Of a stretch of 43,104 bases of DNA, positions 1 to 42,469 are shown in pieces. Below the pieces are notes generated by a model. The model was not told the origin of the DNA. It searched no databases and saw only the letters and a list, made by a program, of their open reading frames with translations. The DNA is from a phage: sequence record PZ445418.1; one strand, 5' to 3'. Both the position numbers and the translations under genes were made by a program. Position 1 is the first letter of the stretch; the number at the start of each line of letters is the position of its first letter.

Positions 1-1386
1 ATGCGTAACTACGCGGAAGAACACCGCGCACTTGAACGCGCGATCGCAAAGCGCAACCGACCGCCGCGCCCGACACGCGTTGCGCAGGCCGTCCGCCTGT
101 ATCAACCTGATTGCCTTCCTCACCAGGTCGAACTACTGCGCGACACAAAGACTAAAATACTCGGCCTGTGTTCCGGCTTCGGTGGCGGTAAGTCATGGGT
201 CGCGGCGAGAAAGGTCATCCAGCTTTTAACCCTGAACCCCGGTCATGATGGCATCGTGACAGAACCGACTATTCCCCTCCTGGTTAAAATCATGTACCCG
301 GAACTGGAAAAGGCGTTTGACGAGGCGGGCTTCCGGTGGAAGTTCAATAAGCAGGACAAGATTTATAACGTGCTTGTGAAAGGCAAATGGACCCGCGTTA
401 TCTGTGAGTCAATGGAGAACTATACCCGCCTGATCGGGGTTAACGCCGCGTGGATTGTTGCCGACGAGTTCGATACCACGAAGCAAGACGTTGCGCTGGC
501 GGCGTATCACAAATTGCTCGGTCGTCTGCGTGCAGGCTTTGTACGCCAGTTCGTCATCGTGTCCACCCCGGAAGGCTACCGGGCGATGTATCAAATTTTC
601 GAGGTGGAGAAGGATAGCCAGAAACGTTTGATCCGGGCGAAGACCACCGACAACCACCATTTACCGGCAGACTTTATCGACACGCTGCGCAGCCAATACC
701 CGGCTAACCTGATCGACGCGTACCTGAACGGCCTGTTTGTTAACCTTACGTCGGGCGCGGTGTATAAGATGTTCAACCGTGATGAGAACGCCAGCACCGA
801 GGAAGTGCAACCGGATGACACGCTGATTATCGGTATGGACTTTAACGTCACGAAAATGGCGGCGGTCGTGTACGTCAGACGGCAGCGCATCACCGAAAAC
901 AAGGAGTTCCGCGACGAGATTCACGCAGTGGATGAATTTGTGGACCTGTTTGATACCCCGGCTATGATTGAGGCGATCGAGGAGCGATACCCCGATCATT
1001 GTGCCGCCGGTCGTGTTGTCGTTTACCCGGATAGCAGTGGTAAGTCTCGTAAGACTGTTAACGCATCATCGTCCGATATAGCGCAACTGGAAGACGCGGG
1101 CTTCGAGGTGGAGTATGACAGTGTTAACCCACCTGTGAAAGACCGATTGATCGCGATGAATACGATGATGTGCAACTCGAAGGGCGTGCGCCAGTATTTT
1201 GTCAACCTGGATAAATGCCCTACACTAGCGAAATGTCTGGAACAGCAGGTTTACGACCTGAAGAAAGGCGAGCCGGATAAAACCGCCGGTGTGGACCACA
1301 TGAACGATGCCGCGGGCTATCCAATTGCGCACCTGTTCCCAGTGATTCGCCCAATCGCCGTTGTTCCAACTGTAGACTTCTACTAA
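1..1386 (+). CDS. terL: terminase large subunit
   Basis: Walker A-like GFGGGKS, Walker B-like IVADEFD, C-terminal nuclease-like region; ATG at position 1 overlaps the TerS stop across the window junction. Confidence 0.85.
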   Translation: MRNYAEEHRALERAIAKRNRPPRPTRVAQAVRLYQPDCLPHQVELLRDTKTKILGLCSGFGGGKSWVAARKVIQLLTLNPGHDGIVTEPTIPLLVKIMYPELEKAFDEAGFRWKFNKQDKIYNVLVKGKWTRVICESMENYTRLIGVNAAWIVADEFDTTKQDVALAAYHKLLGRLRAGFVRQFVIVSTPEGYRAMYQIFEVEKDSQKRLIRAKTTDNHHLPADFIDTLRSQYPANLIDAYLNGLFVNLTSGAVYKMFNRDENASTEEVQPDDTLIIGMDFNVTKMAAVVYVRRQRITENKEFRDEIHAVDEFVDLFDTPAMIEAIEERYPDHCAAGRVVVYPDSSGKSRKTVNASSSDIAQLEDAGFEVEYDSVNPPVKDRLIAMNTMMCNSKGVRQYFVNLDKCPTLAKCLEQQVYDLKKGEPDKTAGVDHMNDAAGYPIAHLFPVIRPIAVVPTVDFY

Positions 1387-1396
1387 GGAAACGACC

Positions 1397-2917
1397 ATGA
1401 CCGTTAACGTTGACAACCAGCACCCACTTTATGCGCGCATCGCGCCCGAGTGGAAGATGATCCGCGATTGTGTAGCAGGGGAGCGCGCCGTGAAGGCGTG
1501 CGGCCCTTTGTACCTGCCACACCCAGCCAGTGGCGACAACACTGACCCGAAAGCACGGGCGAGATATAAGGCGTACAAGCAACGCGCTGTATTCCTTAAC
1601 GCCACCGCACGTACACTTAACGCGCTGTTAGGCGTTGCCTTTGCTAAACCGGTGAGTCTCGACCTTTCCGGGGCGATGGCTGACCTGATTGACGACGTAG
1701 ACGGTAGCGGTATGCCGCTACCGCAACTCCTGCGCGGTGCTATGTCGGAAGTGCTGCAATCAGGCCGTGCGGGCTTTATGGTGGACTACGACCGCCAGGC
1801 GCATTTTGATGAACTGGGTAACGTAGTGCCGCAGACAGCCGCCGAGATGGCGTCACACCGCCCGCTTATCCGCCTGTACACGGCAGAACAGATCATCAAC
1901 TGGCGGCAGACCCACGGCGTCGATACGCTGATTGTGCTGAAGGAGACGGACGAAATCAGCACTGAAGACCCGGACGACTTCGCAAACCACGAAGTAACAA
2001 TCTGGACCGAGCTTCGCATGATTAACGGTGCGGCACACGCCCGACGCTGGTTTTACAACGCGGACACGTCCGAGGTGCAAATGGACTTGCCGCGTGGATT
2101 TACCCGCACCGACCTTGTGCCGCTGGTGGATGCTGCCGGTAAAGCGCTGACACAGCTTCCGTTTTGCTGGTGTGGCGCGGTGGATAACAACGCAACGCCT
2201 GACGCCGCTCCGCTGGCGGATATCGCGTCCATCAACATTAAGCACTACAACGCCGAAGCGGACGTCGCCGAGATTGCGCATATTGTGGGTCAGCCTACCC
2301 TTGTTGCGACTGGTCTGACCCAATCATGGGTGGACAAAAACCTGAAAGGTGGCATCGCGCTCGGAGCGACTAAGGGCGTTATTCTGGGGCAGAACATGGA
2401 CGCCAAACTGATCCAGGCCGAGGAGCGCAACTTGTCTGTTGCGCTGTGTGAGCGACGCGAATTGCAAATGGCTAAACTTGGCGCGGCCCTGGTTGAGAAG
2501 GGGACCGCACCCAAGACGGCAACTGAAGCGGCATACGACGCGCAGACTGATAACAGTATCCTGTCACTGATTGCCGGTAACGTTGAGAAGGCTTTCAACC
2601 GTGCGCTGCAAATCGTGCAGCTTTTCACGGGCGACACCGCCGACCAGCGTGTGACGCTGAATAAGTTCTACACCGAAATCACGGTTGATGCGCAGCTTAT
2701 GACCGCGATGATGTCGGGGGTGCAGACCGGCACGGTCCGCCTGGCTGATTTCATCAAGTGGATGATGGCGCAGGGCGTCATCGACGACTCGCAAACCGTC
2801 GAGCAGGTGGAAGACGAACTGCGAAATCAGAATCCATTGCCTCAAATGTCCCCTGATGCGGTAGAATCTACCGAAGAAGACCCGGACAAGGTAGCGGACA
2901 ATGGCGAAGACAATTAA
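1397..2917 (+). CDS. portal protein
   Basis: 506 aa ORF immediately after TerL, RBS AAGGAAA upstream; size and position typical of portal. Confidence 0.7.
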   Translation: MTVNVDNQHPLYARIAPEWKMIRDCVAGERAVKACGPLYLPHPASGDNTDPKARARYKAYKQRAVFLNATARTLNALLGVAFAKPVSLDLSGAMADLIDDVDGSGMPLPQLLRGAMSEVLQSGRAGFMVDYDRQAHFDELGNVVPQTAAEMASHRPLIRLYTAEQIINWRQTHGVDTLIVLKETDEISTEDPDDFANHEVTIWTELRMINGAAHARRWFYNADTSEVQMDLPRGFTRTDLVPLVDAAGKALTQLPFCWCGAVDNNATPDAAPLADIASINIKHYNAEADVAEIAHIVGQPTLVATGLTQSWVDKNLKGGIALGATKGVILGQNMDAKLIQAEERNLSVALCERRELQMAKLGAALVEKGTAPKTATEAAYDAQTDNSILSLIAGNVEKAFNRALQIVQLFTGDTADQRVTLNKFYTEITVDAQLMTAMMSGVQTGTVRLADFIKWMMAQGVIDDSQTVEQVEDELRNQNPLPQMSPDAVESTEEDPDKVADNGEDN

Positions 2918-4004
2918 TCAATATATGGCGGACCGCATGATCCGCCGTCACATCTTCACCCAGCGCCTGAGCAATGACCAGGCGCGGAGGGTGCTGGCTA
3001 TGTGGGAGAAGTTCCGGCCCACGTTACTGGGTAAGCTGACCGAGTTACTTGATGGCAAAAAGTCCATGAACAACAAGGCACTTACCACTTTGTTAACGCA
3101 ACTCGACAAGACCGTTAAAGCAGAATTGCGCACCGAGTTTAAGGCGTTGGCCGAAAGCCTTCAGGAGTTTGCCGACACCGAGGCCGATTATCTCGCCGAC
3201 ACATTGACGGCAGCGATCCAGCCGGTGGTCGCCGTACCGGCGGTCGAGGTGGTTGGCGTAGTGACCGGTGCGCAGATCGCAGCTACGGCAATGAAAAACC
3301 CGTTCCAGGGTAATACGATGATGCAATGGCCTGACTCACTTTCTGAGTGGACCAGGACGCAGATCGGCAATCAGGTGCGCGCCGGATTCATCCAGGGCAA
3401 GCCGACTATGGAAATTATTGCGGACGTGAGGCGCGCGCTAGGCGGTCGTAGTGCGCAAGCTATCTCGAGCGTTGTTAAATCCGCAGTAAACCACTATGCG
3501 GCGACGGCCCGCGAACTAATGGTAAAAGCAAATGACGATATTCTCGAAGGTCGCCAATGGTTATCTACATTGGACACGCATACTTCTCCCATGTGCCAGC
3601 TACGCGATCGCCTGTTCTATCCGGTCGATGTTACTCCCACTACAAAAGGCAAGCGCGGCGGGAAAGTGGTGGCGGGATCACAATATGGCGCTGGTCCGGG
3701 CAAGCTGCATTATTGCTGCCGTTCGACGGAGACGTGGAAAGTCAAAGGTATGGAAGATTGGCCCAGTGGTAAGCGTCCGGCACTGAAGGCCGACGCAGGC
3801 AGATTGCTGAGTGAGCAGGTCGACGCGCAGACTGATTTCTTCTCATGGGTGCAGCGCCAGCCGCGCCATATCCTGGAGGAATTATATGGAGTGCAACGCG
3901 CCGACCAGATTATGCGCGGCGTGAAAGTGCCGAAGATGTTTACCGATTCTGGCGAACTGATGACTATTGCACAGCTTAAAAACCGGGGGTTATGGCGTGA
4001 TTAA
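2901..4004 (+). CDS. MuF-like minor head / head morphogenesis protein
   Basis: 367 aa, follows portal; C-terminal W-STLD-THTSPMC segment resembles Mu F family. Confidence 0.55.
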   Translation: MAKTINQYMADRMIRRHIFTQRLSNDQARRVLAMWEKFRPTLLGKLTELLDGKKSMNNKALTTLLTQLDKTVKAELRTEFKALAESLQEFADTEADYLADTLTAAIQPVVAVPAVEVVGVVTGAQIAATAMKNPFQGNTMMQWPDSLSEWTRTQIGNQVRAGFIQGKPTMEIIADVRRALGGRSAQAISSVVKSAVNHYAATARELMVKANDDILEGRQWLSTLDTHTSPMCQLRDRLFYPVDVTPTTKGKRGGKVVAGSQYGAGPGKLHYCCRSTETWKVKGMEDWPSGKRPALKADAGRLLSEQVDAQTDFFSWVQRQPRHILEELYGVQRADQIMRGVKVPKMFTDSGELMTIAQLKNRGLWRD

Positions 4005-4305
4005 GTATGCAGCGATTGGGCTGGTAATTGGCCTGGCGGTTGGATTCTGGCAGGGTGATTCCTACCGCACTGGCGTTGAGGCGAGAGCGGCGCAAGAAGC
4101 GCAAGCGAAAGCCCAACGGCAGCAAACTAAGGTTGTCGAGGGGGCTGTGCAGGCAGAACAGGCCCGCGATGTGGAATACCGGACTATCACGAAAGAGGTT
4201 GTTAAATATGTTACGCGCCCTAACCGCCCTGATTGTAGTTTTGATTCTGAGCGCGTGCGGATCAAGCAACGTGCCATTGATGCCGCTAACCGAGTCGGTT
4301 TATAG
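3997..4305 (+). CDS. putative i-spanin (Rz-like)
   Basis: N-terminal TM helix (IKYAAIGLVIGLAVGFW) then Ala/Gln-rich helical domain; GTG at 3997 preceded by GGGGG; a TTG at 3967 is the alternative start. Confidence 0.4.
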   Translation: MIKYAAIGLVIGLAVGFWQGDSYRTGVEARAAQEAQAKAQRQQTKVVEGAVQAEQARDVEYRTITKEVVKYVTRPNRPDCSFDSERVRIKQRAIDAANRVGL

Positions 4306-4438
4306 ACCGCCTTGCACCTTTGAGAATGCCTCGGCAGACCCAGACGAAGACTTGCTTGTTGATGTTAAAAATATGGAGTGTGGGGCAAAGTTAAGGGCGC
4401 AAGTGCTGGAGTTGCAGAAAATAATTCGGGGGCCGTGA
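4208..4438 (+). CDS. putative o-spanin (Rz1-like lipoprotein)
   Basis: starts inside the Rz-like gene in another frame; lipobox LSAC after hydrophobic signal; RBS AAAGAGG 9 nt upstream of ATG; Pro/Cys-containing mature part. Confidence 0.45.
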   Translation: MLRALTALIVVLILSACGSSNVPLMPLTESVYRPPCTFENASADPDEDLLVDVKNMECGAKLRAQVLELQKIIRGP

Positions 4439-4452
4439 TGGCCCCTTTTTTG
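4428..4452 (+). terminator. intrinsic terminator
   Basis: GGGGCC-gtgat-GGCCCC hairpin followed by TTTTTT. Confidence 0.7.
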
Positions 4453-5217
4453 TTATCGCGGAATACCGCAAATCTCGTTTAACGTCTTCACGTCCAGTGC
4501 CACCGCCGTGGACTTCGGCTTGTCAGGGTACGGAATGAATTGTTCCACTTCAGGCCACGCCTTGATCAGCTTCTTATCGGTATTGTGCAAATCCAGCACG
4601 CCAGTTACGGTTAGTTTGAACGCGTCATACTTCGCGCGCAAATCGCGGCGGGCCTTGTCGTTACGGTCAAGGCGCTTGCAGAAATCATGGTCCGCCGGGT
4701 AGTCTACGCGACCGCGCGGAAGATATATCGGCAGCGATTTTCCGTCCTCGTCCACTTCGCACACTGAAGCCAGCATAACTTCCTCGTACCCCGGTACGAT
4801 ATCGCCGAGATCGGGAGATAGCTTATTCATATATTTCTCTTCCCAGTATCCGCGGTGCAGGCGGTATCGGAATCCATCGCCGCTCAATGATACGGTGCGA
4901 ACATTACCTCCTGCGTTGATATCGAATCCGGCGCTATAAACGCTGCCGATGCCTTTTGGCCGGTCGGAGTTATAGCTATACGTCGCCTTGTCGGTGTAAA
5001 CGCTAACGCCATACATCTGCGACTGGTTATCGCGGATTTCTGCGATATATGCGCGTAACTCGGCGAACGTGCGAATGCCTTCCGGCATACAGTCCAGCGT
5101 AATGGCGTACGCCAAGTCGCGAGAGTCCATCATGATGGATTTTGCTTCGGTCGCGATTTCATGGTCGCGCAGGATGTTAGCCAGAATCTTGTTTTTAACG
5201 TCTTTTGTCAGTCTCAT
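4453..5217 (-). CDS. hypothetical protein (opposite-strand gene inside head module)
   Basis: 254 aa from internal ATG (MRLTKD) of the 390-aa track ORF; own promoter upstream; no recognisable motif. Confidence 0.55.
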   Translation of the reverse strand: MRLTKDVKNKILANILRDHEIATEAKSIMMDSRDLAYAITLDCMPEGIRTFAELRAYIAEIRDNQSQMYGVSVYTDKATYSYNSDRPKGIGSVYSAGFDINAGGNVRTVSLSGDGFRYRLHRGYWEEKYMNKLSPDLGDIVPGYEEVMLASVCEVDEDGKSLPIYLPRGRVDYPADHDFCKRLDRNDKARRDLRAKYDAFKLTVTGVLDLHNTDKKLIKAWPEVEQFIPYPDKPKSTAVALDVKTLNEICGIPR

Positions 5218-5246
5218 TTTTGCGTCCTCGTTGTTGGTGTGCAACC

Positions 5247-5275
5247 AATATATGCAACCAATACGCGGATTGCAA
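5247..5275 (-). promoter_or_regulatory. sigma70-like promoter TTGCAA-17-TATATT
   Basis: hexamers with 17-bp spacer on minus strand; two TGCAACCAAT copies (5240-5249, 5253-5262) overlap it. Confidence 0.5.
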
Positions 5276-5365
5276 GCGAATTTTGCGATTATTTTTATCA
5301 CTGATAATATTAGAGGCGTGAAGTCGAGCGGGTGGCCCGCTCTGCCACAATCCCAGGGGGATAGC

Positions 5366-6070
5366 ATGAAACTTACTAAAGCAGAATATGACGCGTTGCC
5401 GGAAGGTATGAAGGCGCTTTTTGTTGCCGATGGTGACGGGTATAAATCAACGTTCATGACCGCAGAAGAAGTACAGGCGGAAATCAAGGGTCTGAAAGAC
5501 AACAACGCGAAGCTGGTGAGCGAGAAGAAAGCAGAAGCCGAACGCCGCGCCGAAGCTGAGCGCCTTGCGAAAGAGAAAGAGGAAGCCGCCGCGCGCAAAA
5601 ATGGCGACCTCGAAGCGATCGACAAGTCCTGGAAAGATAAGTTTGCGAAACACGAAGCAGATACATCGGGAAAAATCGAAGCCTACCGCAAGCAGATCCA
5701 CGATCTAACCATCGGCAGCGCTGCCAAAGACCTGGCGTCGAAGCTGTTCGGTAAGAATGCGGGCATCATGCAACGCCACGTAATGGACCGCCTGACGCTG
5801 GAAGACGGTGAAGACGGCAGCTTGAAAGTGCGTGTCTTGCAGGATGGCAAACCGTCCGCGCTGACTATGGAAGAGCTTGAAAAAGAGTTCCGTAATAACG
5901 CCGATTTTGCATCCGTCCTGGCTGGCACGCCAGCCGGTGGCGCGCCTAGCAAACCGACGCAGGTTGTCGAAGATGTGAAGTCGAAAATCACTATGGGCCA
6001 TAGCTTCGGCATCACTGACCTTACGAAACAGGCAGGTGATATCATCGCTAAGATGGGCGACGACGAGTAA
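5366..6070 (+). CDS. scaffolding protein
   Basis: 234 aa, Ala/Glu/Lys-rich helical sequence directly upstream of capsid gene; RBS GGGGGA. Confidence 0.6.
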   Translation: MKLTKAEYDALPEGMKALFVADGDGYKSTFMTAEEVQAEIKGLKDNNAKLVSEKKAEAERRAEAERLAKEKEEAAARKNGDLEAIDKSWKDKFAKHEADTSGKIEAYRKQIHDLTIGSAAKDLASKLFGKNAGIMQRHVMDRLTLEDGEDGSLKVRVLQDGKPSALTMEELEKEFRNNADFASVLAGTPAGGAPSKPTQVVEDVKSKITMGHSFGITDLTKQAGDIIAKMGDDE

Positions 6071-6074
6071 GCAG

Positions 6075-6100
6075 ATTGCCCGCGAAAGCGGGCAATTTTG
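6075..6100 (+). terminator. intrinsic terminator (weak U-tract)
   Basis: ATTGCCCGC-gaaa-GCGGGCAAT then TTTTG. Confidence 0.45.
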
Positions 6101-6167
6101 CGAGCGCGTAAATCTAAGGTAACATTAACGTCACTGGGCGAATGCTCACAACTCAAAGGATTTCGAT

Positions 6168-7271
6168 ATGTCTTTAACAGTGTTCCAGCGTAAACTCGTT
6201 ACCGCGGTTACGCAAATGATCCCCGACAACCTGAACGTATTCAACGCTGCCGCCAATGGCGCTGTTGTTCTCGGTACTGGTGAAGTGCTGAAGGATGTTG
6301 TAGAAAAAATGTCCGTAGGCTTGATCGCCAACCTTGTTACCGACCGTAACGCCTACGCCCCTGTCGGTACTCCGGCAACCGCTAAAGTGCTGGCGCGTAT
6401 GCTGACCAACTCGGTTAACCTGTCCGCGAAAGTGGGTCCGGTGGCAATCACTAAGGCTATGATGGCTAAGATCGAAACCAACGTTAACAGCGTTGCGGCT
6501 GAGATTGCGGCACAGGCCACGCAAGCGATTATGCTGCATTACCTAAAAGCGGGTATCGGTGCGGGTAAAGCGGCGATCGAGAGCAACAACAACAACGCGG
6601 TATACACCCAACCGGCGCGCGTTGATGGCGTTGGCGGTCGTATCTTCCCGACCCTGGCTGACTTCCCGCTGGCGGCTTCTAAGTTCGGCGATCAGGCGTC
6701 TTTGATTAAGTCCTGGTTTATGGACGGCGTTACCTGGGCAAACTTCATTGCATACCAGGCGCTCCCTTCCGCTGAACAGGTATTCGCGATTGGCGATCTT
6801 CAGGTAATGGGCGATGGCCTGGGCCGTCGTTTCATTATCTCCGATGCCGCTGCCGATGCTATGGGTGCTGGTAAAATGCTGGGTCTGGTCCCTGGCGCGG
6901 TTGCAGTTACCACCAACGGCCTCGATATGCTGGCGCAGGAGAAAGGCGGTAACGAGAACATTGAGCGCTGGTGGCAGGGTGAGTTCGACTTCAACGTGGC
7001 TGTTAAAGGCTACCGTCTGAAGGCGTCCGCTCGTACCCCGATCGAAGGCGTCCGCTCGTTCAAGCTGTCCGATATCACCACCAAGGACAACTGGGAACTG
7101 GACCAGGGCCAGGTAGACAACGCACCGGCAACCGTTCAAGATGTTGGCGCTGTGGGTGATGGCGATACTAAAGGCCGTCGTAAGACCCAGGCCGCACAGG
7201 AAGTGCCGACCCGTCACATCAAGGAAACGGCTGGCGTACTGGTTACGCTGACTGCGACCACAGCGTCCTAA
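6168..7271 (+). CDS. major capsid protein
   Basis: 367 aa ORF after scaffold, followed by a strong terminator; position and size. Confidence 0.65.
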   Translation: MSLTVFQRKLVTAVTQMIPDNLNVFNAAANGAVVLGTGEVLKDVVEKMSVGLIANLVTDRNAYAPVGTPATAKVLARMLTNSVNLSAKVGPVAITKAMMAKIETNVNSVAAEIAAQATQAIMLHYLKAGIGAGKAAIESNNNNAVYTQPARVDGVGGRIFPTLADFPLAASKFGDQASLIKSWFMDGVTWANFIAYQALPSAEQVFAIGDLQVMGDGLGRRFIISDAAADAMGAGKMLGLVPGAVAVTTNGLDMLAQEKGGNENIERWWQGEFDFNVAVKGYRLKASARTPIEGVRSFKLSDITTKDNWELDQGQVDNAPATVQDVGAVGDGDTKGRRKTQAAQEVPTRHIKETAGVLVTLTATTAS

Positions 7272-7288
7272 CAGGCGCACATCCCAAA

Positions 7289-7314
7289 GGGGCGGGCATA
7301 AGCCCGCCTTTTTT
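7289..7314 (+). terminator. intrinsic terminator
   Basis: GGCGGGC-ataa-GCCCGCC followed by TTTTTT. Confidence 0.75.
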
Positions 7315-7329
7315 ATAGGAGTGAATACA

Positions 7330-7830
7330 ATGTATGGCGACCCGCAAACCTTTGTCGATTATGCCGCTGCGCGAGGCGTTGAAATTACGCTGGGCGATGC
7401 AACGCGACACCTTACCATCGTTAATGACTTCCTTAACGGCATCAACTGGATCGGCGAACAAGCAGACCAGACCGGAATCGACGCATGGCCCCGCATTAAT
7501 TACCCGTCAGACGGTAAGCCGGTGCGGGACACGCTCACTGAAGTTGTGGCGGTAGTGCCTGCCGGGAAGATCGTAGACTTCGCATCAATCCCCGTTGCTG
7601 TTGAGCAAGCCGTTTACCGGCTGGCAATGTTGGTGGCTGACGAGGTCGATATTTCTCCGATCGGCGATGGCAAGGAGACTATCCGCGAAACTGTAGGCCC
7701 GATCACGATGGAATATGACCCCGCGACGATTGGTAGCGGGGTGTCGTTCCCGTGGTGGGATGGCTTGCTGGGCCACTGGATTGACTCAAACGGCAACGCA
7801 GCGGGTAATTTTGACGTATTCCGGGGGTGA
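7330..7830 (+). CDS. putative head-tail connector protein
   Basis: ATG at 7330 with AGGAG RBS; position between capsid and tail genes. Confidence 0.45.
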   Translation: MYGDPQTFVDYAAARGVEITLGDATRHLTIVNDFLNGINWIGEQADQTGIDAWPRINYPSDGKPVRDTLTEVVAVVPAGKIVDFASIPVAVEQAVYRLAMLVADEVDISPIGDGKETIRETVGPITMEYDPATIGSGVSFPWWDGLLGHWIDSNGNAAGNFDVFRG

Positions 7831-7831
7831 T

Positions 7832-7951
7832 ATGAATCCTGCATTACTGGCGGCTATTATCGCCGCAAATACTAAACAGCCGACGGAACAAGAACCGGAG
7901 CCAGAACCAGTACCACCGGCACAGGAGAGCGAAGAAGATGGCGGGCTTTAA
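7832..7951 (+). CDS. small Pro/Glu-rich hypothetical protein
   Basis: 39 aa, ATG preceded by GGGGGTGA. Confidence 0.3.
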   Translation: MNPALLAAIIAANTKQPTEQEPEPEPVPPAQESEEDGGL

Positions 7952-8291
7952 TTACGCAGGATTAAAGCGGAAAGTGAATCCGCTGATTAAAAAATTCGGC
8001 ATGACCGTTACGGTTACGCGTCCGGGATCGGTTGACCGCGTAGACGGCGAAGAAGTTGTCATCCCACCGACCTCGTTTGACGTCATCGGTCTTCGCGAGG
8101 AGTACGAGCCGAGCGAGATCGACGGAACGCGTATCGTTGCCGGTGATGTGAAGTTTTTATGTCGGGCGGTTGAGCAATTGCGGGTGGGCGACCTGGTTAA
8201 CCTGAACGGCACTGACTACCGGGTCGTCAACCCTAACCCACTGCAACCAGCTGGCACTACCATGCTGTTTCAACTACAGCTAAGGGGCTAA
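7938..8291 (+). CDS. putative head-tail adaptor / head closure protein
   Basis: 117 aa, position in connector region. Confidence 0.45.
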   Translation: MAGFNYAGLKRKVNPLIKKFGMTVTVTRPGSVDRVDGEEVVIPPTSFDVIGLREEYEPSEIDGTRIVAGDVKFLCRAVEQLRVGDLVNLNGTDYRVVNPNPLQPAGTTMLFQLQLRG

Positions 8292-21068: not shown

Positions 21069-21090
21069 AAAGCCCCGAAAGGGGCTTATT
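21069..21090. terminator. bidirectional intrinsic terminator
   Basis: AAGCCCC-gaaa-GGGGCTT between convergent genes; overlaps lipoprotein stop. Confidence 0.6.
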
Positions 21091-21304
21091 TGCAGGTTGT
21101 GCTTTTGAAATGGCCTACAGACACGTACTGGAAACTAAACGGATAGCCAGCCCGTAACATTTTATGACCGCTAACGTCCGCAACCCCAAACACAGGGACT
21201 GAGTACTCCATACCACTATTCATGTATGTTGCGTCGCAGATTTTAGACGGCATATTGGCACAACCGGACAAAAGAACCACACAAATCATAATTAAAGTTT
21301 TCAT
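21086..21304 (-). CDS. small lipoprotein, candidate Cor/Llp-like superinfection exclusion protein
   Basis: MKTLIMICVVLLSGC signal with lipobox LSGC; AGGAGA RBS; antisense to tail genes next to fibre locus. Confidence 0.55.
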   Translation of the reverse strand: MKTLIMICVVLLSGCANMPSKICDATYMNSGMEYSVPVFGVADVSGHKMLRAGYPFSFQYVSVGHFKSTTCK

Positions 21305-35876: not shown

Positions 35877-38141
35877 ATGAGCTTAATTAAATTCGCTGTA
35901 ACAAGACCCGCTAAAAAAGGCGAAAAAGCCAGGGCGGAAAACTTCCAGATGACGACCGATGAGTTTTTCGAATTTATCAAAGATGCGAAAGAAATCTCCT
36001 CGGTGCATATCAACAAGACCGAGGATAAAGCCGAGTATGCGCGCCGCAAGCGTAAGGCCGACGGCATCGTGGCGTATACCAGTGATGGATTGCGTCGCAA
36101 GACCAGTGCGGTGGACCGCTCGATCCTGTTCTTCGATATTGACCGTACCGACACCCGCACCCTACGCCGCTGCCGTAAGGCGTTCATTGACGCGGGTATG
36201 GAACACGTATTTCACACCACAACCGGCGACCGTCACCCACTGAAAGGCGGTATGCGTTGTGCCCGTTTCCTGGTGCTCACCGATAAGCCTGTACCGGCTG
36301 AAGACCTGGGCCGCGTCCAGTATGCACTACTACACCAACTGGGCCTGTCAGATGTGGACTTCGACGATTGCACGAAAGACACTAACCGCCTAATGTACCT
36401 GCCACATCAGCAGTCTGTCGTTAAGTGTCACTACGGCAAACGTGCCCGCGTCCGTCGTCTGCTTCGCCTGGCTGATAAGCTGGGAGTGGAAAAAGAGGAA
36501 GTACGCCGCGAACTAACCCAGGGCGATGACGGCGTGGCAGACGGTATTCTGGATTGGTGCTTCCAGGCGGGATTCGAACCGCTGTCGTCCGGTCGTGGCT
36601 ATGAAGTGCCGTGCCCGAACGAACACCTGCACAGCGGCGAAGGGTCCACCGCTATTATGGTTAAGGATGGCGAGATCCGTTTCAAGTGTATGCACACCGG
36701 AAACGAGTGCTGTTCCGAACTGAACAGACACCAGCACCTGGCGCTACGTCTTATAGGGATCCCGGACCACCTGAACGTCGAACCGCACAACATGTCACGT
36801 AAGCAAATCGCCGCCATCCTCCCTGGACTGGACGACGAGGAAGTCGAATCGTGCTATGAACATATTGTTGATGCAGTTGGCGACGGCGAAGAATACGGCG
36901 TGTGCACCGATGCGGATCTGGATAACGAGCCGGTCGCACTCTTCAGTAAGCACGACCCGATCATAGAAGGCCTGGTAAACTTCAAATCGACCTGGTACAT
37001 GGCTGGCGAGTCGAACATCGGTAAATCGTTCTACGTGCTGGGGCAAATGGGCGCGGTTGCCGCGGGGATTCCGTTCGGTGGCGCGAAGGTAGTCCAGTCT
37101 CATTGCTTCTATTTCGACGCGGAAGGTGGTGAAGCCTCCAACCAGCGTAAAGAAGCATTGCAGATTAAATACGAGCACGACCTGGACAAGCTGCACATTA
37201 TCGATCTGCAATCACGCGGCTGGGATATCACCAGCAAATCCGGCTTGCGTGAAGTTATCAGCTTCATCAACCGCACCGCTAACGGCGAGCCGGTTGGCCT
37301 GGTGGCGTTCGACTCACTCAACCAGACTGTTGCGCTGCGGTCCGCCGATGCAAAACCGTTCGACGAGAATAACGCCAGCGATATGGGTGAAGTGGTCAAA
37401 GCGCTGAAGGCCATTGCGGAAAATACAGGCGGCAGTGCGGGCGTCATCCACCACCCAGCGAAGGGTGCAAACGGCAGCAGATCTCCCCGTGGGTCCGGCG
37501 CGCTTCATGGTGCTGTCGATTCTGCGTTCTTCCTGGAACAGCCGGACGACAACCAGCCAGGCCAACTCAACCTGTACCATGAAAAGGCACGTAACGGCAT
37601 CAAGCAAGCGCCGCGCGGCTTCGTCCTGCTTAAGTGCAAGGTTAAGGTGGATCTCCGCAAGTCCGAGGCGTTCGAAGCCCACCAGTCCACCAGCACCGGG
37701 CCGGACTTCGGTGATGTGGTTGCCGGATGGGACGTCAAGCCAATTGCCTCCACGCCACGCGACGAGACTCTCTACCTCGTACCGGTCGCCCTGGCGCCGT
37801 TCGCTATCGAACAGGCAAAGGCAGCGGGCAAAGCAGCAGTTAAGGAAGAGAACACCGCCGGACCGCGCAACGAAAAAGAAAAGGTACTTTACGCGGCGCT
37901 GGAAAAACTGATGGAAGACAACCCGGACCATACCGGATTCAGTAAATCGGCAATTGTCCGCCAGGCGGGATTGGCAAAAGGTGGCACATCGACGAAGGCA
38001 ATCGACGATATGGTCGAGCGCGGAGTGCTGGGTTTTTACACCGATCCGCACACTGGGGCCATCTATGGGTCGTCGAATATCGTCATTAAAACGAATATAC
38101 CCATCACGCTTTCGGCGACCGACGAAGATTTAAAAGATTAA
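35877..38141 (+). CDS. primase / replicative ATPase fusion protein
   Basis: 754 aa; Cys/His cluster CPNEHLH...CMHTGNEC; Walker A GESNIGKS and Walker B-like LVAFDSLN in C-terminal half. Confidence 0.7.
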   Translation: MSLIKFAVTRPAKKGEKARAENFQMTTDEFFEFIKDAKEISSVHINKTEDKAEYARRKRKADGIVAYTSDGLRRKTSAVDRSILFFDIDRTDTRTLRRCRKAFIDAGMEHVFHTTTGDRHPLKGGMRCARFLVLTDKPVPAEDLGRVQYALLHQLGLSDVDFDDCTKDTNRLMYLPHQQSVVKCHYGKRARVRRLLRLADKLGVEKEEVRRELTQGDDGVADGILDWCFQAGFEPLSSGRGYEVPCPNEHLHSGEGSTAIMVKDGEIRFKCMHTGNECCSELNRHQHLALRLIGIPDHLNVEPHNMSRKQIAAILPGLDDEEVESCYEHIVDAVGDGEEYGVCTDADLDNEPVALFSKHDPIIEGLVNFKSTWYMAGESNIGKSFYVLGQMGAVAAGIPFGGAKVVQSHCFYFDAEGGEASNQRKEALQIKYEHDLDKLHIIDLQSRGWDITSKSGLREVISFINRTANGEPVGLVAFDSLNQTVALRSADAKPFDENNASDMGEVVKALKAIAENTGGSAGVIHHPAKGANGSRSPRGSGALHGAVDSAFFLEQPDDNQPGQLNLYHEKARNGIKQAPRGFVLLKCKVKVDLRKSEAFEAHQSTSTGPDFGDVVAGWDVKPIASTPRDETLYLVPVALAPFAIEQAKAAGKAAVKEENTAGPRNEKEKVLYAALEKLMEDNPDHTGFSKSAIVRQAGLAKGGTSTKAIDDMVERGVLGFYTDPHTGAIYGSSNIVIKTNIPITLSATDEDLKD

Positions 38142-38260
38142 ATTTTGCGCGCATTGGTTGCCGATATGGGAATTCCCATATCGCTAAAAGGTTAAATTTT
38201 GCGCGCATTGGTTGCCATTTTGAGTGTTTTTATTTGGTCGTATTGGTTGCCGTGTAGTGT
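38138..38260. repeat. direct repeats flanking a perfect 20-bp palindrome
   Basis: TTAAATTTTGCGCGCATTGGTTGCC at 38138-38162 and 38192-38216; palindrome GATATGGGAATTCCCATATC at 38163-38182; third ATTGGTTGCC at 38242-38251. Confidence 0.75.
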
Positions 38261-38268
38261 AAATATAG

Positions 38269-38463
38269 TGAATAGTTATGCAGTTTTATTGCATAAAGTA
38301 AGCGGGACAGAAAGCGGGACAAACAAGGGGCGGGACAAAGCGGGACAGCACCCCCGTCCCGCCCCGGATGGCGCGGCTTCCAGAGGAGCGGGACAGCGGG
38401 ACAGCACCCCAGTCTTTCAGACTAGACGGGGGTCATCGGCCCCCCTCGTCTGAGACTGAATAA
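38269..38463. repeat. iteron element B (second copy of element A)
   Basis: box TGAATAGTTATGCAGTTTTATTGCATAAA, six GCGGGACA(G/A) units, terminal hairpin differing from copy A at only 2 positions. Confidence 0.8.
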
Positions 38464-38619
38464 AATCCGGGGGATTGCAAAATACACGGCAGCATGTTGC
38501 GAAGTGCGGTCGCGGATGAACTAGGCAACCAATGCGAGATGCATTATGCGGAGTGAAAAACACAGTTTGCAGTTGCAGCAGATAGCGATCAACTTTTTCA
38601 TGCGCATGTTTGATATTGG

Positions 38620-38648
38620 TTGCATCCGCCCTAGCACCCTGCTATATT
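38620..38648 (+). promoter_or_regulatory. sigma70-like promoter TTGCAT-17-TATATT
   Basis: flanked by ATTGGTTGCA at 38615-38624 and 38645-38654; leader matches the one upstream of 4453..5217. Confidence 0.55.
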
Positions 38649-38676
38649 GGTTGCACACCAACAAGAGGACTGAACA

Positions 38677-38982
38677 ATGAAAGCGATTATCTGGAATTAC
38701 TCCCTGGCCGTGGCAAAGCTGGACGAAGCGAAGGCACTAAACAGCAACGTAGATCAGGCGCTTCAGGTTGCGATACTGGCGCATCAATCCCTTCGCAGCG
38801 CGCTCTATGGCATGGGCGCCAGCATGGACGAACTGAGGCCGTTGCGTATGGCAATCCACGAATACGCGCGGGCATTCTCCCGTGAGCGCCTGGCGTATCG
38901 CTTCGGTATTGGCGATAAGGCAGTGACAAACGTCGCCAGGATTAAAGCCCAGCGCGAGCTATTCGCCCAGCTTGCGAAATAA
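38677..38982 (+). CDS. hypothetical protein
   Basis: 101 aa helical protein, RBS GAGGA. Confidence 0.5.
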   Translation: MKAIIWNYSLAVAKLDEAKALNSNVDQALQVAILAHQSLRSALYGMGASMDELRPLRMAIHEYARAFSRERLAYRFGIGDKAVTNVARIKAQRELFAQLAK

Positions 38983-38991
38983 GGGGCCAAA

Positions 38992-39261
38992 ATGAGACGT
39001 AGACGAGCTAAACAGCTTTCATGGCATATTCCACTGCATTGCATACGAATATGGGCTGAGAATGCGGTTGAGGGCGATTCTGTGTTCTGGTGCTATCGCG
39101 ATGATGTGAAGCCACTGACGCAGACTCGCTACTTGCACCAGTTTGCAGCACAACACGATTTCAGGGTGCGGACTTCCTTGCAACCAATGGGCATTCGTAT
39201 TACATTACGCCGGAAGCCCGCCGTTGAGCGGGTAGGCAAACACTGGAGGCTGAGCAAATGA
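38992..39261 (+). CDS. hypothetical protein
   Basis: 89 aa, RBS AAGGGG. Confidence 0.45.
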   Translation: MRRRRAKQLSWHIPLHCIRIWAENAVEGDSVFWCYRDDVKPLTQTRYLHQFAAQHDFRVRTSLQPMGIRITLRRKPAVERVGKHWRLSK

Positions 39262-39410
39262 CACCAATGCAAAGGGCACTAATGGCGGGATTCTCGCAGA
39301 AGTTTATTTCAGTAGACGCCTGCATAGCTGATTATGAGATGGACGGCATCGCTACGGTATGCGATGGCGACTATAAGACTGTTGACGAGATCGAGGAGAC
39401 TGAGCAATGA
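39258..39410 (+). CDS. small acidic hypothetical protein
   Basis: 50 aa, ATGA overlaps at both ends; not in ORF track. Confidence 0.35.
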   Translation: MTPMQRALMAGFSQKFISVDACIADYEMDGIATVCDGDYKTVDEIEETEQ

Positions 39411-39979
39411 AATTACTATTCCGCCGTAAGTGCGATGGCTGCATCCTGAAGCCGATCCAGACCCTGGATTCCTACGTCCGCTTGCAAAACGCGGCAGGCA
39501 ATCGGGTGTGGTGGGCGAAGAAAGACAAGCTGACGGCAAACTTTGACGTACTCACCCACGATATCGAGCGCGGCGATGTGCTGCGGGATATTCGCGACGG
39601 GCAGCTATGGATCGTGGAATACGTTGGTTTTAATAGCCTTCGTATGCAGACGCGCAAGGGTGGCGTTGCTGGTAACCTGGTTAAGAGCGTGGCGTACTTC
39701 GGACTAATCAACTACGAGCGAGTGGGCCGCAAATACAGCCTTCGCAAACACCAGCCGCATGAGCGCGTCGAGTTCCGCAAGTCGCAGCCCGCGTATGCCA
39801 CCTACGACGCGAGCAAAGTGATGGAGCCGATCCGTCAGGCGGCGCATGAGATAGTCAATCGCGTTGATGCCGTGACGAATGCACAGCGCCATGCGCAGGA
39901 ATACGGCGTGGGATTCATCCGTGTCGAACGAGACGGCAGCATGAACGCCATCGACCCGCGCTCGGTGATTCTGAAATGA
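39407..39979 (+). CDS. hypothetical protein
   Basis: 190 aa, translationally coupled. Confidence 0.5.
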   Translation: MKLLFRRKCDGCILKPIQTLDSYVRLQNAAGNRVWWAKKDKLTANFDVLTHDIERGDVLRDIRDGQLWIVEYVGFNSLRMQTRKGGVAGNLVKSVAYFGLINYERVGRKYSLRKHQPHERVEFRKSQPAYATYDASKVMEPIRQAAHEIVNRVDAVTNAQRHAQEYGVGFIRVERDGSMNAIDPRSVILK

Positions 39980-40116
39980 GTGCGACGATCCGTGATATGC
40001 TTCAGCACAACCGCTTTGAGATAGGCGGTCGGGTATTTCGCAATTACTTCGTGGCGCGTGCATGGGCGCGCCATATTGGAAAACCGGAAGGGGCAATACG
40101 ATGCTACACGATTTGA
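39976..40116 (+). CDS. small hypothetical protein
   Basis: 46 aa, ATGA overlap with previous gene; not in ORF track. Confidence 0.3.
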   Translation: MSATIRDMLQHNRFEIGGRVFRNYFVARAWARHIGKPEGAIRCYTI

Positions 40117-40388
40117 TATATTGGTTTGGTTTGATCTGCGGGCTGTGCCTGCTTACCGCGGTGCTGGTGGGCGTCCTGATGTTCGTAGTGTGGCCCGCGG
40201 TGGAAGCCGCCAGCATTACCCGCATGACGTTCGAGATATACAAGCGCCGTGGAATCAAGGAGCACCCGACCAGGTTGCGCATGTGGTGGCTGTGGTATCG
40301 CGATATGATAGGCGGGCGAACATTCGAAGCCGTCCGGTCTAGTGGATGGGAGTGGAAAGGCGTCGGCAAGTGGTCCATTTTCGATTAA
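40101..40388 (+). CDS. membrane protein (one TM helix)
   Basis: from ATG at 40101; hydrophobic YWFGLICGLCLLTAVLVGVLMFVVW then basic/Trp-rich tail. Confidence 0.45.
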   Translation: MLHDLIYWFGLICGLCLLTAVLVGVLMFVVWPAVEAASITRMTFEIYKRRGIKEHPTRLRMWWLWYRDMIGGRTFEAVRSSGWEWKGVGKWSIFD

Positions 40389-40405
40389 TTATGCAAGCGT
40401 GATAT

Positions 40406-40440
40406 AGTCCCAGTGAGATAAAACTTACTGGGACTTTTTT
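40406..40440 (+). terminator. intrinsic terminator abutting holin start
   Basis: AGTCCCAGT / ACTGGGACT 9-bp stem, 12-nt loop, TTTTTT ending at 40440; ATG at 40441. Confidence 0.65.
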
Positions 40441-40731
40441 ATGGATAAGCTAAACGAGTGGTTATTCGCCCTTGCGTGTCTTGCTGGTGGCTTCGTCGGC
40501 GCACGCATTCATGGCGAGGCAACGAAAGGGCCGTTGAACTTCGTTTTATATGTCGTGGTTGGCTTCCTGTGTGCCATATTTGGTGCGCCAGCTATTGCCG
40601 AGTGGTCTGGTTTGTCTGGTGAGCGCACTGTTGCCGGTTTGGGCTTCGTAACTGCCATCTTCTGGATGCCAATAGCTGACCGGATCCGGGAGACAATTGC
40701 GTCGCTACACCTTCCGGGGGGCGCAAAATGA
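40441..40731 (+). CDS. holin
   Basis: 96 aa with about three hydrophobic segments, immediately upstream of second membrane protein and endolysin. Confidence 0.6.
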   Translation: MDKLNEWLFALACLAGGFVGARIHGEATKGPLNFVLYVVVGFLCAIFGAPAIAEWSGLSGERTVAGLGFVTAIFWMPIADRIRETIASLHLPGGAK

Positions 40732-40973
40732 TTATCACCGTCCTGTTGTTTGTTATCATAGGGGCTTCGTCCCTGTTTAACGTGTATGCGCCGTCCGTCC
40801 AGGATGGCATTTTAGGCCGGGTGTTATATCTGCTAACAGCGATGATCTGCGTTATCGGATTGTTGCAAACAGGAGACGTATCTGACACCACCTGGACCGC
40901 GTTAATCTGGCTGTTTGCATTGCGCACCCTGCGTAATGCTGTTTTGAATGGGGTAAAACATGCGATTCAGTGA
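40728..40973 (+). CDS. second holin/antiholin-like membrane protein
   Basis: 81 aa, two hydrophobic helices, ATGA coupling. Confidence 0.5.
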   Translation: MIITVLLFVIIGASSLFNVYAPSVQDGILGRVLYLLTAMICVIGLLQTGDVSDTTWTALIWLFALRTLRNAVLNGVKHAIQ

Positions 40974-41451
40974 TAACGGTCTACGATTTACGGCAGCATG
41001 GGAGACGTTCAGCCCAGTGCCGTATTTCGCGACTAAGAAAGAGCAGGCCCGCGGCCTGTACACCTGGGGTTATGGTCATACCGGCACTAACCCGCCTCGA
41101 AGCATTACCCGCGCGGAAGCGCTGGAGCTACTTAAGCACGATGTGGCGTATGCTGAGGACTGGGTGAACAAATACGCACATCCGAGCATTAACCAGGCGC
41201 AATTCGACGCGCTGGTGGACCTGGTAATCAATGCTGGTCCGGGTCCGATCGTACCGGATGACGTCGCGAATGATTTCGATGATGCGGTGCGACTGGGCGA
41301 CTGGGCGAAGGTACGGGCTACTCTGCCGCAGTTCCGCAAGCAAGGTGGGGAAGTGCTGAAGGGGTTAGTCCGTCGAGCAATCGGCAGGCAGGCGCTATTC
41401 GATGGTAAGCAGTGGGACGTTGCCGAGAAGATCGGACGTAACGCAGCATAA
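40960..41451 (+). CDS. endolysin, GH24 lysozyme-like
   Basis: GYGHTG and N-Q-A-Q-F-D-A-L-V-D-L-V-I-N resemble P22 gp19 / T4 lysozyme family. Confidence 0.7.
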   Translation: MRFSDNGLRFTAAWETFSPVPYFATKKEQARGLYTWGYGHTGTNPPRSITRAEALELLKHDVAYAEDWVNKYAHPSINQAQFDALVDLVINAGPGPIVPDDVANDFDDAVRLGDWAKVRATLPQFRKQGGEVLKGLVRRAIGRQALFDGKQWDVAEKIGRNAA

Positions 41452-41467
41452 TACGGGGTAACACAGT

Positions 41468-41881: not shown

Positions 41882-41887
41882 AACCAC

Positions 41888-41915
41888 AAGCCCGGTTAAT
41901 TCCGGGCTTTTTATT
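41888..41915 (+). terminator. intrinsic terminator
   Basis: AAGCCCGG-ttaatt-CCGGGCTT followed by TTTTATT. Confidence 0.7.
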
Positions 41916-41917
41916 GC

Positions 41918-41947
41918 TTGACTTGCAACCAACTATCAGACCATACT
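41918..41947 (+). promoter_or_regulatory. sigma70-like promoter TTGACT-18-CATACT
   Basis: TGCAACCAA directly after -35; followed by strong RBS GAGAGGAG. Confidence 0.35.
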
Positions 41948-41977
41948 GCTACCGATCAACGAGAGGAGTATTACACT

Positions 41978-42436: not shown

Positions 42437-42443
42437 CCCTCCT

Positions 42444-42469
42444 AGCCCGCCGATTTGGTGGGCTTTTTT
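42444..42469 (+). terminator. intrinsic terminator
   Basis: AGCCCGCC-gattt-GGTGGGCT followed by TTTTT. Confidence 0.7.

Follow-up and report, generated by a model that had tools for sequence, protein, structure and literature searches.

Two overlapping genes in the head module of this phage are identified, with high confidence, as an overlapped two-component spanin of the 'Jersey' family of Kongari et al. 2018 (PMC6139136), the class criteria applied being those of Summer et al. 2007 and Kongari et al. 2018. The window, i.e. the whole stretch of 43,104 nt that was analysed (PZ445418.1), represents the entire, circular genome of a Dhillonvirus, an HK578-like phage of E. coli; circular closure follows from the TerL ATG at base 1, which shares its A with the TerS stop codon TAA at the end of the window, as it does in Oekolampad. 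The + strand holds every gene from ∼35.5 kb round to 4438, where the genes for TerS, TerL, portal and head morphogenesis are followed, in the same direction, by those for the i-spanin and, last, the o-spanin. A lone reverse-strand accessory gene (Nmad5) adjoins the pair. The features of the locus are:

2901..4004, + strand: head-morphogenesis gene (SPP1 gp7 / Mu F-like); phrog_241 'head morphogenesis', E 3e-117
3985..3989, + strand: SD-like GGGGG, 7 nt 5′ of the i-spanin GTG and within the end of the head-morphogenesis gene (direct reading)
3997..4305, + strand: i-spanin gene, 102 aa, GTG start; phrog_2536 'Rz-like spanin', E 1.4e-35
4195..4198, + strand: SD-like GAGG, 9 nt 5′ of the o-spanin ATG (direct reading)
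4208..4438, + strand: o-spanin gene, ATG start, prolipoprotein of 76 aa (60 aa mature); phrog_5672 'Rz-like spanin', E 1.3e-25
4428..4446, both strands: G+C-rich hairpin with a T-run on the + strand, terminator-like on both strands (terminator scan)

The sequence-only reading had claimed a spanin pair at this position and had proposed a profile search against spanin families as a check. That search places both subunits in the 'Jersey' i-/o-spanin family, which corresponds to phrog_2536 and phrog_5672; phrog_1152 and phrog_8821, both annotated 'Rz-like spanin', also match the i-spanin, and phrog_1267, with the same annotation, also matches the o-spanin (E 2.7e-10). Neither protein matches a Pfam family at E ≤ 0.1, the lambda Rz (Phage_lysis) and Rz1 models included, an NCBIfam scan of both returned nothing relevant, and searching the PDB with the i-spanin sequence yielded nothing beyond a chance match (E 0.49). 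The PHROG matches, together with the topology signals, the overlap of the genes, the conserved lipobox and cysteines, and the homologues that lie beside endolysin genes elsewhere, bear out the claim. Likewise, the open reading frame with a transmembrane helix and the overlapping lipoprotein frame with the lipobox LSAC both exist as had been described.

The mechanical ORF that contains the i-spanin spans 3967..4305 (TTG start, 112 aa), and its first codon had been taken as the start of the gene. The TTG at 3967 lies inside the upstream gene and has no SD, and it was rejected in favour of the GTG at 3997, which is preceded by GGGGG and is the start curated for HK578; the o-spanin ATG at 4208 stands as first read. 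A string of 24 nt around the i-spanin SD is identical to that recorded as the RBS region for the i-spanins of HK578 and JL1 (PMC6139136 supplement). Hydropathy and a rule-based reading of the protein locate a hydrophobic N-terminal helix at approximately residues 4-19 and a single cysteine, Cys80, and beyond the helix the protein is charged, with D, E, K and R making up 29 of the 102 residues. This composition suggests a single N-terminal transmembrane helix with a periplasmic remainder. An AlphaFold model of low confidence (pLDDT 57, shallow alignment) contains helices at 3-73 and 84-97 and hints at a helical periplasmic part. The i-spanin thus resembles the inner-membrane member of a two-component spanin in being small, in its single N-terminal transmembrane domain and in its predicted, largely helical periplasmic C-terminal part.

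The o-spanin occupies the +1 frame with respect to the i-spanin and starts inside the i-spanin gene, an arrangement of the 'overlapped' type, with an overlap of 98 nt and a further 133 nt beyond the i-spanin stop. Its N-terminus, MLRALTALIVVLILSA followed by CGS, contains R3, a hydrophobic core of 10 residues (mean hydropathy 3.16) and the lipobox L-S-A-C with Cys17, and Gly rather than Asp occupies the +2 position (rule-based reading). A positive n-region, hydrophobic core, lipobox Cys and non-Asp +2 residue make up the signal of an outer-membrane lipoprotein, and the protein is predicted to be lipidated at Cys17; a homologue carries the name 'prokaryotic lipoprotein lipid attachment site' in one database source. 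The mature protein of 60 aa contains 6 Pro as well as Cys36 and Cys58, so that periplasmic cysteines are present in both subunits (Cys80 in the i-spanin). The polar C-terminus, ...KLRAQVLELQKIIRGP, has no hydrophobic stretch, which sets the protein apart from a unimolecular spanin of the T1 gp11 type.

To assess conservation, the locus was compared across 16 related Dhillonviruses on the basis of DNA loci rather than called proteins, as the o-spanin is under-called. In the region read only as i-spanin, variation at codon positions 1/2/3 is 0.32/0.16/0.64 with a synonymous:non-synonymous ratio of 226:113, and in the region read only as o-spanin the corresponding values in the o-spanin frame are 0.33/0.16/0.66 and 200:93; the unused control frame gives 24:325. 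Both the i-spanin and the o-spanin frames are therefore coding and under purifying selection in the 16 Dhillonviruses. The start codons, the lipobox and all periplasmic cysteines of the pair are invariant in 16/16, the i-spanin start and register are the same throughout, and AAAGAGGT at the o-spanin SD is unchanged in every relative. The transmembrane domain, Cys80, the lipobox Cys and both periplasmic o-spanin cysteines are also invariant in the more distant Jerseyvirus Ent3, Kagunavirus K1ind1 and Klebsiella phage ZX4. At the protein level, the window spanins share 84-98% identity with their Dhillonvirus homologues, with one outlier at 71%.

These data bear directly on the reading in which only the transmembrane protein is real, the lipoprotein frame being either a chance frame or part of a longer product of 136 aa encoded by the mechanical ORF at 4028..4438 (TTG start). 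Gene callers do list this ORF, and the product of 76 aa occurs in few protein databases, a large protein-database search having returned 7 clusters only. The scarcity of clusters is attributed to the fact that overlapped ORFs are rarely called, and under-annotation of o-spanins in the overlapped arrangement is a documented artefact (PMC6139136). The third-position wobble in the o-spanin frame extends over the 133 nt past the i-spanin stop, the o-spanin ATG, SD and lipobox do not vary, and in 16/16 relatives in-frame stops fall between the TTG and the ATG, within the would-be extension; in 8/16 an in-frame stop lies within two codons directly 5′ of the ATG. The ORF of 136 aa was thus rejected as the true product, in line with the judgement of the sequence-only reading that its N-terminal extension is implausible, and we regard a chance or extended frame as extremely unlikely. 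The call is an artefact and provides a further case of gene callers mishandling overlapped o-spanins.

A different objection is that a membrane protein and a lipoprotein could serve a role other than lysis, such as superinfection exclusion or receptor masking (cf. Cor, Llp and T4 Imm/Sp), as a moron inserted in the head module. The position among head genes and next to the reverse-strand Nmad5 gene does resemble a moron slot, exclusion lipoproteins exist in phages, and one is encoded in this genome:

21086..21304, − strand: Cor-type exclusion lipoprotein; phrog_1119, E 9.7e-28

In addition, our literature search for experiments that tie the 'Jersey' family to lysis returned annotations only. 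Against a role of this kind, both proteins match spanin PHROGs and the o-spanin does not match the Cor family phrog_1119, and an overlapped transmembrane-protein/lipoprotein pair with conserved periplasmic cysteines is a spanin signature (PMC6139136). Homologues are furthermore found in the lysis cassettes of two Klebsiella phages: in phage ZX4 the homologous i-spanin gene directly follows endolysin and holin genes, and in phage 2 LV-2017 it lies after a lysozyme gene, downstream of a Q-like antiterminator. A moron with a non-lysis function would also leave the genome with no spanin at all. A six-frame scan of the 43 kb from every start codon found only five lipobox-like loci, two of which have family support, namely the o-spanin and the Cor-type lipoprotein. 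A second spanin elsewhere in the genome, which the sequence-only reading had named as part of the evidence that would speak against its claim, was sought and rejected, since the one further lipoprotein with family support resembles Cor, and an Ig-domain protein is the product of the gene that follows the endolysin. A non-lysis role is accordingly judged very improbable, and a spanin role of the pair in lysis is indicated.

The mechanism that we propose is modelled on lambda Rz/Rz1. The i-spanin would insert into the inner membrane via its N-terminal helix, N-in C-out, and reach into the periplasm with a domain that is largely helical. The o-spanin would be lipidated at Cys17 by host Lgt/LspA/Lnt and, because Gly and not Asp occupies the +2 position, would be carried by Lol to the inner leaflet of the outer membrane. 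The two subunits would then bind via their periplasmic parts, forming complexes that are stabilised by disulfides and pass through the meshwork of the peptidoglycan. Once two holins had permeabilised the inner membrane and a soluble lysozyme-type endolysin had degraded the murein, the freed spanin complexes would disrupt the outer membrane, probably by its fusion with the inner membrane, as the final step of lysis. The proteins assigned to the earlier steps are encoded at:

40441..40731, + strand: holin 1, 96 aa; phrog_2359 'holin', E 5.1e-31
40728..40973, + strand: holin 2, 81 aa; phrog_2508 'holin', E 1.6e-26
40960..41451, + strand: endolysin of the lysozyme family, 163 aa; PF00959 Phage_lysozyme, E 8.7e-21; phrog_7 'endolysin', E 1.5e-35

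Direct reading of the endolysin N-terminus reveals no hydrophobic stretch, and the enzyme is therefore taken to be of the soluble, holin-dependent type. With the spanin pair, the set of holin, endolysin and spanin is complete in this genome. Its lysis functions are split across the packaging genes, as had been stated: the endolysin stop (41451) and the i-spanin start are separated by a gap of 5649 nt that contains the TerS, TerL, portal and head-morphogenesis genes. The distance of 6.6 kb given by the sequence-only reading is reproduced when the window is taken as circular, being 6630 nt around the circle from the holin start to its own start for the pair, 3967. Linkage to holin and endolysin genes, a usual but non-defining attribute of spanins, is absent here, and the argument from guilt by association is consequently lost within this genome.

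The putative transcription signals at the ends of the gene blocks are consistent with control of the spanin apart from the holins and endolysin. The head-morphogenesis stop overlaps the i-spanin start by 8 nt, a possible setting for co-transcription and translational coupling of the two genes. At the other end, the hairpin at 4428..4446 includes the o-spanin stop codon and closes the co-directional block; its local fold has an energy of −21.3 kcal/mol (z −2.2), and its GGCCCC(C)TTTT motif is kept in relatives. From the overlap at the i-spanin start and the terminator after the o-spanin, the spanin would most likely be expressed from the packaging/head mRNA and not from the holin-endolysin transcript. 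Candidate boundaries between the two units were located upstream:

41888..41909, both strands: terminator-like hairpin after the gene following the endolysin (terminator scan); candidate end of the holin-endolysin unit
42444..42483, + strand: terminator-like hairpin (42444-42464) followed by an extended −10-like element (scan and sequence); here the transcription unit whose last genes are the spanins may begin

The extended −10-like element, TGtTATAAT (42475-42483), is accompanied by a −35-like TTGGTG (42455-42460), precedes the TerS ATG (42554) by 70 nt and is conserved in Oekolampad. A further strong hairpin-plus-T-run is found at 40406-40435 (z −5.5).

The pair could nonetheless be a functional spanin under common control with the other lysis genes, if one long late transcript ran from the lysis cassette past the hairpins, across the packaging genes and on to the spanins. 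The uninterrupted + strand orientation from ∼35.5 kb round to 4438 would permit such a transcript, and lambda provides a precedent in that its lysis cassette and terminase genes lie on one antiterminated late transcript. Consensus scans are, moreover, no evidence of function, and terminator-like sites in 1..8000 are no commoner than in shuffled sequence. The three strong hairpin-plus-T-run sites between and around the units (40406-40435, 41888-41909 and 42444-42464), the conserved TGtTATAAT directly before TerS, and the number of terminator-like sites in 38000..43104 (10 observed versus 4.8 ± 2.5 expected) all argue against read-through, which we consider a possible but less probable arrangement. 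Separate control of the spanin, as the sequence-only reading had supposed, is plausible on these signals. Synthesis from the head mRNA would be tolerable because spanins build up without harm until the murein is destroyed.

A stronger claim would be that the head-module placement is functional rather than a historical accident, with spanin synthesis tied to the packaging/head operon transcriptionally and perhaps also translationally. The placement is conserved in Dhillonvirus, Jerseyvirus and Kagunavirus, and the 8-nt overlap is present in Dhillonvirus, on which grounds this reading may be entertained, although we think it rather unlikely to be correct. If it were, the capacity for outer-membrane disruption would scale with capsid production and be regulated independently of the holin clock. 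Our literature search returned annotations, and no explicit discussion, of the head-module position of 'Jersey' spanins.

Both the pair and its position among the head genes are already known from close relatives, in which they are catalogued or annotated. The pair of HK578 and JL1 is listed as overlapped and as belonging to the 'Jersey' family, the HK578 i-spanin at 4569-4899 (109 aa) and its o-spanin at 4780-5011 (76 aa, 60 mature) (Kongari et al. 2018, PMC6139136), and GenBank relatives including Oekolampad annotate an i-spanin and an o-spanin at the homologous position. HK578, JL1, EP23 and SO-1 form a genus-level group with the window, sharing the position after the head-morphogenesis gene, the identical RBS string and an o-spanin that agrees in length (76 aa, 60 mature), in lipobox and in cysteines. 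The i-spanin of the window has 102 aa, ends in ...NRVGL and gives the 98-nt overlap, whereas that of HK578 has 109 aa, ends in ...NGVGTATAVQVR and gives an overlap of 119 nt; the variant of 102 aa is common to the window, Oekolampad, Envy, Gluttony and SO-1.

Outside this family, lambda Rz/Rz1 resembles the window pair in its inferred job, in combining a type II inner-membrane protein that has a helical periplasmic domain with a small outer-membrane lipoprotein in the +1 frame, and in the periplasmic cysteines of both subunits (PMC6139136), but with no detectable sequence similarity. Unlike Rz/Rz1, the window pair is overlapped rather than embedded and lies outside the lysis cassette, and its o-spanin is longer than Rz1, has fewer prolines and is helix-prone in its C-terminal third. 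The classic spanin genes unlinked to holin and endolysin are T4 pseT.3/pseT.2, which demonstrate that linkage is not required (PMC6139136). The T4 o-spanin also has a predicted C-terminal helix; the T4 spanin genes are separated rather than overlapped and belong to a different sequence family, and the T4 holin and endolysin genes, unlike those of the window, are also unlinked from each other.

The split layout itself extends to Jerseyvirus and Kagunavirus, such that the finding is correct but ordinary, a modest and already visible trait of one siphophage group as a whole, with little value beyond correct annotation; it could nevertheless serve as a natural test of the need for spanin expression coordinated with that of holin and endolysin. 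The spanins of vB_SenS-Ent3 (gp07/gp08) and K1ind1 (gp06/gp07) are homologous to the window pair at 35-43% identity and share with it the motifs VKYV..P.R..C.F and PPC...D.DEDL..DV.N.EC. As in the window, the overlapped pair that encodes them sits in the head module, ahead of the scaffold gene, and two holin genes and an endolysin gene lie just upstream of terminase. In these two genera, however, the pair is separated by ∼320 nt from a Hoc-like decoration gene upstream of it instead of overlapping the head-morphogenesis gene, the i-spanins have 128 aa, and no reverse-strand Nmad5 gene follows. In Jerseyvirus SeF1, PHROGs 2536 and 5672 are reported for genes 9 and 10, and PHROGs 2359 and 2508 for genes 63 and 64 (PMC9409062), the same four families as in the window.

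The 43,104-bp window is a whole siphophage genome, from an E. coli phage of the HK578-like genus Dhillonvirus, rotated such that its first base is the start of the large terminase (TerL) ATG. Many Dhillonvirus genomes match region 3600-4800 at 92-94% identity, the best of them being phage Oekolampad (Bas18). The small terminase gene (TerS) reaches the final base of the window and the last A of its TAA stop is base 1, just as TerS and TerL share an A in Oekolampad. As the TerS/TerL junction thus closes the circle, distances may be counted across the window end.

Features of the spanin locus and lysis cassette
2901..4004, plus strand, head-morphogenesis gene (phrog_241, 3e-117)
3997..4305, plus strand, i-spanin gene: GTG start, 102 aa, GGGGG 7 nt upstream
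4208..4438, plus strand, o-spanin gene: ATG start, 76 aa, GAGG 9 nt upstream
4428-4446, G+C-rich hairpin and T-run, terminator-like on both strands, containing the o-spanin stop codon
40441..40731, plus strand, holin (phrog_2359)
40728..40973, plus strand, second holin (phrog_2508)
40960..41451, plus strand, endolysin of the lysozyme family (PF00959, phrog_7)

The i-spanin product has a hydrophobic helix (residues 4-19), is otherwise highly charged and carries a single cysteine, Cys80. Its low-confidence AlphaFold model (pLDDT 57) consists of a long helix (3-73), a Cys80 loop and a second helix (84-97), and may resemble the two-helix layout described for Rz. The N-terminus of the o-spanin, MLRALTALIVVLILSA/CGS, combines a basic residue, a hydrophobic core and the lipobox L-S-A-C (Cys17); the Gly at position +2 means that no inner-membrane retention signal is present. 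Among the 60 aa of the mature protein are six prolines and two cysteines, Cys36 and Cys58. The genes overlap by 98 nt and the o-spanin gene runs 133 nt past the i-spanin end, which is the 'overlapped' architecture that the sequence-only reading had recognized. A scan of all six frames of the genome that took each ATG, GTG and TTG as a possible start found lipobox-like signals at five loci only. Two of these have profile support: the o-spanin and a lipoprotein of the Cor exclusion type, 21086..21304(-). The latter gene, the only credible one for a lipoprotein besides the o-spanin, lies between tail genes and encodes 72 aa (MKTLIMICVVLLSGC...) of the Cor superinfection-exclusion family (phrog_1119, 9.7e-28).

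The spanin locus is collinear in all 16 other Dhillonviruses compared (Oekolampad and 15 IMG/VR contigs). Variable sites at codon positions 1/2/3 amount to 0.32/0.16/0.64 in the i-only part and 0.33/0.16/0.66 in the o-only part read in the o frame, and synonymous to non-synonymous differences from the window are 226:113 (i-only), 200:93 (o-only) and 24:325 (unused frame); purifying selection therefore acts on both frames. None of the 16 relatives departs from the window in the GTG at 3997, the ATG at 4208, the SD motifs, the lipobox or any cysteine. A mechanical ORF list gives longer versions of the two plus-strand frames, both from TTG codons: 3967..4305 (112 aa) and 4028..4438 (136 aa). Of the span 3967-4438 first proposed for the pair, the end holds, and the start gives way to GTG 3997, which puts it within the last 8 nt of the head-morphogenesis gene, the mechanical TTG lying ∼30 nt too far upstream. 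The 136-aa ORF, already doubted from the sequence, is rejected as an accident of the window genome, as in-frame stops lie between TTG and ATG in every relative, in eight of them within the two codons directly before ATG.

No Pfam or NCBIfam model matches either protein, which places the pair outside the lambda Rz/Rz1 sequence families. The expected match to spanin profiles is obtained with PHROGs annotated 'Rz-like spanin': phrog_2536 (1.4e-35) and two others for the i-spanin, phrog_5672 (1.3e-25) and phrog_1267 (2.7e-10) for the o-spanin. By tblastn, i-spanin homologues occur in 668 phage records, mostly from Jerseyvirus (Salmonella) and from Dhillonvirus or Kagunavirus (Escherichia), some of them from Klebsiella phages. 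When the pair is aligned with its homologues from Jerseyvirus Ent3, Kagunavirus K1ind1 and Klebsiella phage ZX4, the TMD, the motif VKYV..P.R..C.F and Cys80 prove to be conserved in the i-protein, as do the lipobox Cys, the motifs PPC and D.DEDL..DV.N.EC and the two periplasmic cysteines in the lipoprotein. In ZX4 the homologous pair comes directly after endolysin and holin; in Klebsiella phage 2 LV-2017 it comes after lysozyme, and a Q-like antiterminator lies upstream of them. These arrangements supply the lysis-cassette association that is absent from the window itself. In ZX4 (5800-6937 of the extracted locus), endolysin, holin and overlapped spanin pair lie together between head-morphogenesis and coat genes, and the o-spanin ORF (6692-6937, lipobox ISGC) is without annotation in its record.

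The spanin reading of the pair is thus supported, and both the pair and its position were already known. Kongari et al. 2018 (PMC6139136) assign HK578, JL1, EP23, EK99P-1, SSL-2009a and SO-1 to a 'Jersey' family of overlapped two-component spanins; for HK578 their tables have an i-spanin of 109 aa (4569-4899), an o-spanin of 76 aa, 60 aa when mature (4780-5011), an overlap of 119 nt and the RBS string agcttaaaaaccGGGGGttatggc. This string is identical to window 3973-3996, and the sole difference from HK578 is the 102-aa i-spanin variant of the window with its 98-nt overlap, which is common to Oekolampad, Envy, Gluttony and SO-1. Among Dhillonviruses (window 4285-4305 against ∼3289-3330 in the loci L006-L020 extracted from relatives) the i-spanin C-terminus takes two forms, 102 aa (...NRVGL, 98-nt overlap) or 109 aa (...NGVGTATAVQVR, 119-nt overlap), and the o-spanin is constant at 76 aa with either. 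We found no experiment on the 'Jersey'-type family in the literature. By analogy with Rz/Rz1, the i-spanin would be held in the inner membrane by its anchor and the lipidated o-spanin would go to the outer membrane, the two forming a disulfide-linked complex across the periplasm. The murein meshwork would restrain this complex, which, after holin triggering and endolysin action, would disrupt the outer membrane.

The split of the lysis functions noted earlier is confirmed: 5649 nt, with TerS, TerL, portal and head-morphogenesis genes, separate the endolysin stop from the i-spanin start, and the 6.6 kb first estimated from the holin is 6630 nt round the closed genome from the holin start to 3967. 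In the GenBank entries for Oekolampad, GeorgBuechner, Gluttony and others, i-/o-spanin are annotated at the corresponding place, and holins and endolysin lie near the opposite end. Jerseyvirus and Kagunavirus share this layout: their spanin genes stand in the head module, ahead of scaffold, and holin-holin-endolysin comes just before terminase; a published Jerseyvirus annotation has exactly the same four PHROGs, as genes 9 + 10 and 63 + 64 (PMC9409062). T4 is the classic case of unlinked spanin genes (PMC6139136). On direct reading, the endolysin N-terminus has no hydrophobic segment. The gene at 41468..41881 (+) was rejected as a spanin; its product is an Ig-domain protein in which a 48-aa N-terminal part (phrog_11068) is joined to an Ig-like domain of the Big_2 type. 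In Oekolampad the place of this gene is taken by an ORF of only 55 aa, and the two phages differ in the region up to TerS. Directly upstream of the holin, 40101-40388 (+) encodes a small single-TMD protein (phrog_2531, 8.3e-37) that could either help to regulate lysis or be a membrane protein with no part in it.

The plus strand carries every gene from ∼35.5 kb round to 4438; the spanin genes close this block and are followed by the bidirectional terminator and a lone reverse-strand gene. There are three strong hairpin and T-run sites, at 40406-40435 (z -5.5) before the holin, at 41888-41909, 3′ of the Ig-domain gene, and at 42444-42464. Directly after the last, 70 nt before TerS, lies a perfect extended -10, TGtTATAAT (42475-42483), that is kept in Oekolampad; it was missed by a consensus scan because the accompanying -35-like TTGGTG matches at only 3/6 positions. 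The hairpins, the conserved TGtTATAAT and the end terminator therefore make plausible a single unit from a putative promoter through TerS, TerL, portal, head-morphogenesis and i-/o-spanin genes to the terminator. Such a unit would agree with the separate control of spanins and holin/endolysin proposed earlier, which, as judged from consensus matches, is plausible but unproven, and read-through from the lysis cassette may also reach the packaging genes and spanins. The hairpin at 40406-40435 (12 bp and a T6 run, -24.8 kcal/mol) ends 5 nt before the holin ATG and could shield the cassette from transcription that comes from upstream or, on transcripts that read through, throttle holin translation. 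The holin's sole SD-like GGGA lies inside the 3′ arm of the hairpin, the 5′ arm is overlapped by an extended -10-like TGaTATAGT (40400-40408), and 40400-40441 is identical in Oekolampad save one loop base. The lone reverse-strand gene, 4453-5220 (-), encodes an Nmad5 (nucleotide-modification-associated) domain (PF18757, 1.2e-36) and is flanked by the o-spanin terminator and the scaffold gene; Jerseyvirus and Kagunavirus lack a gene here.
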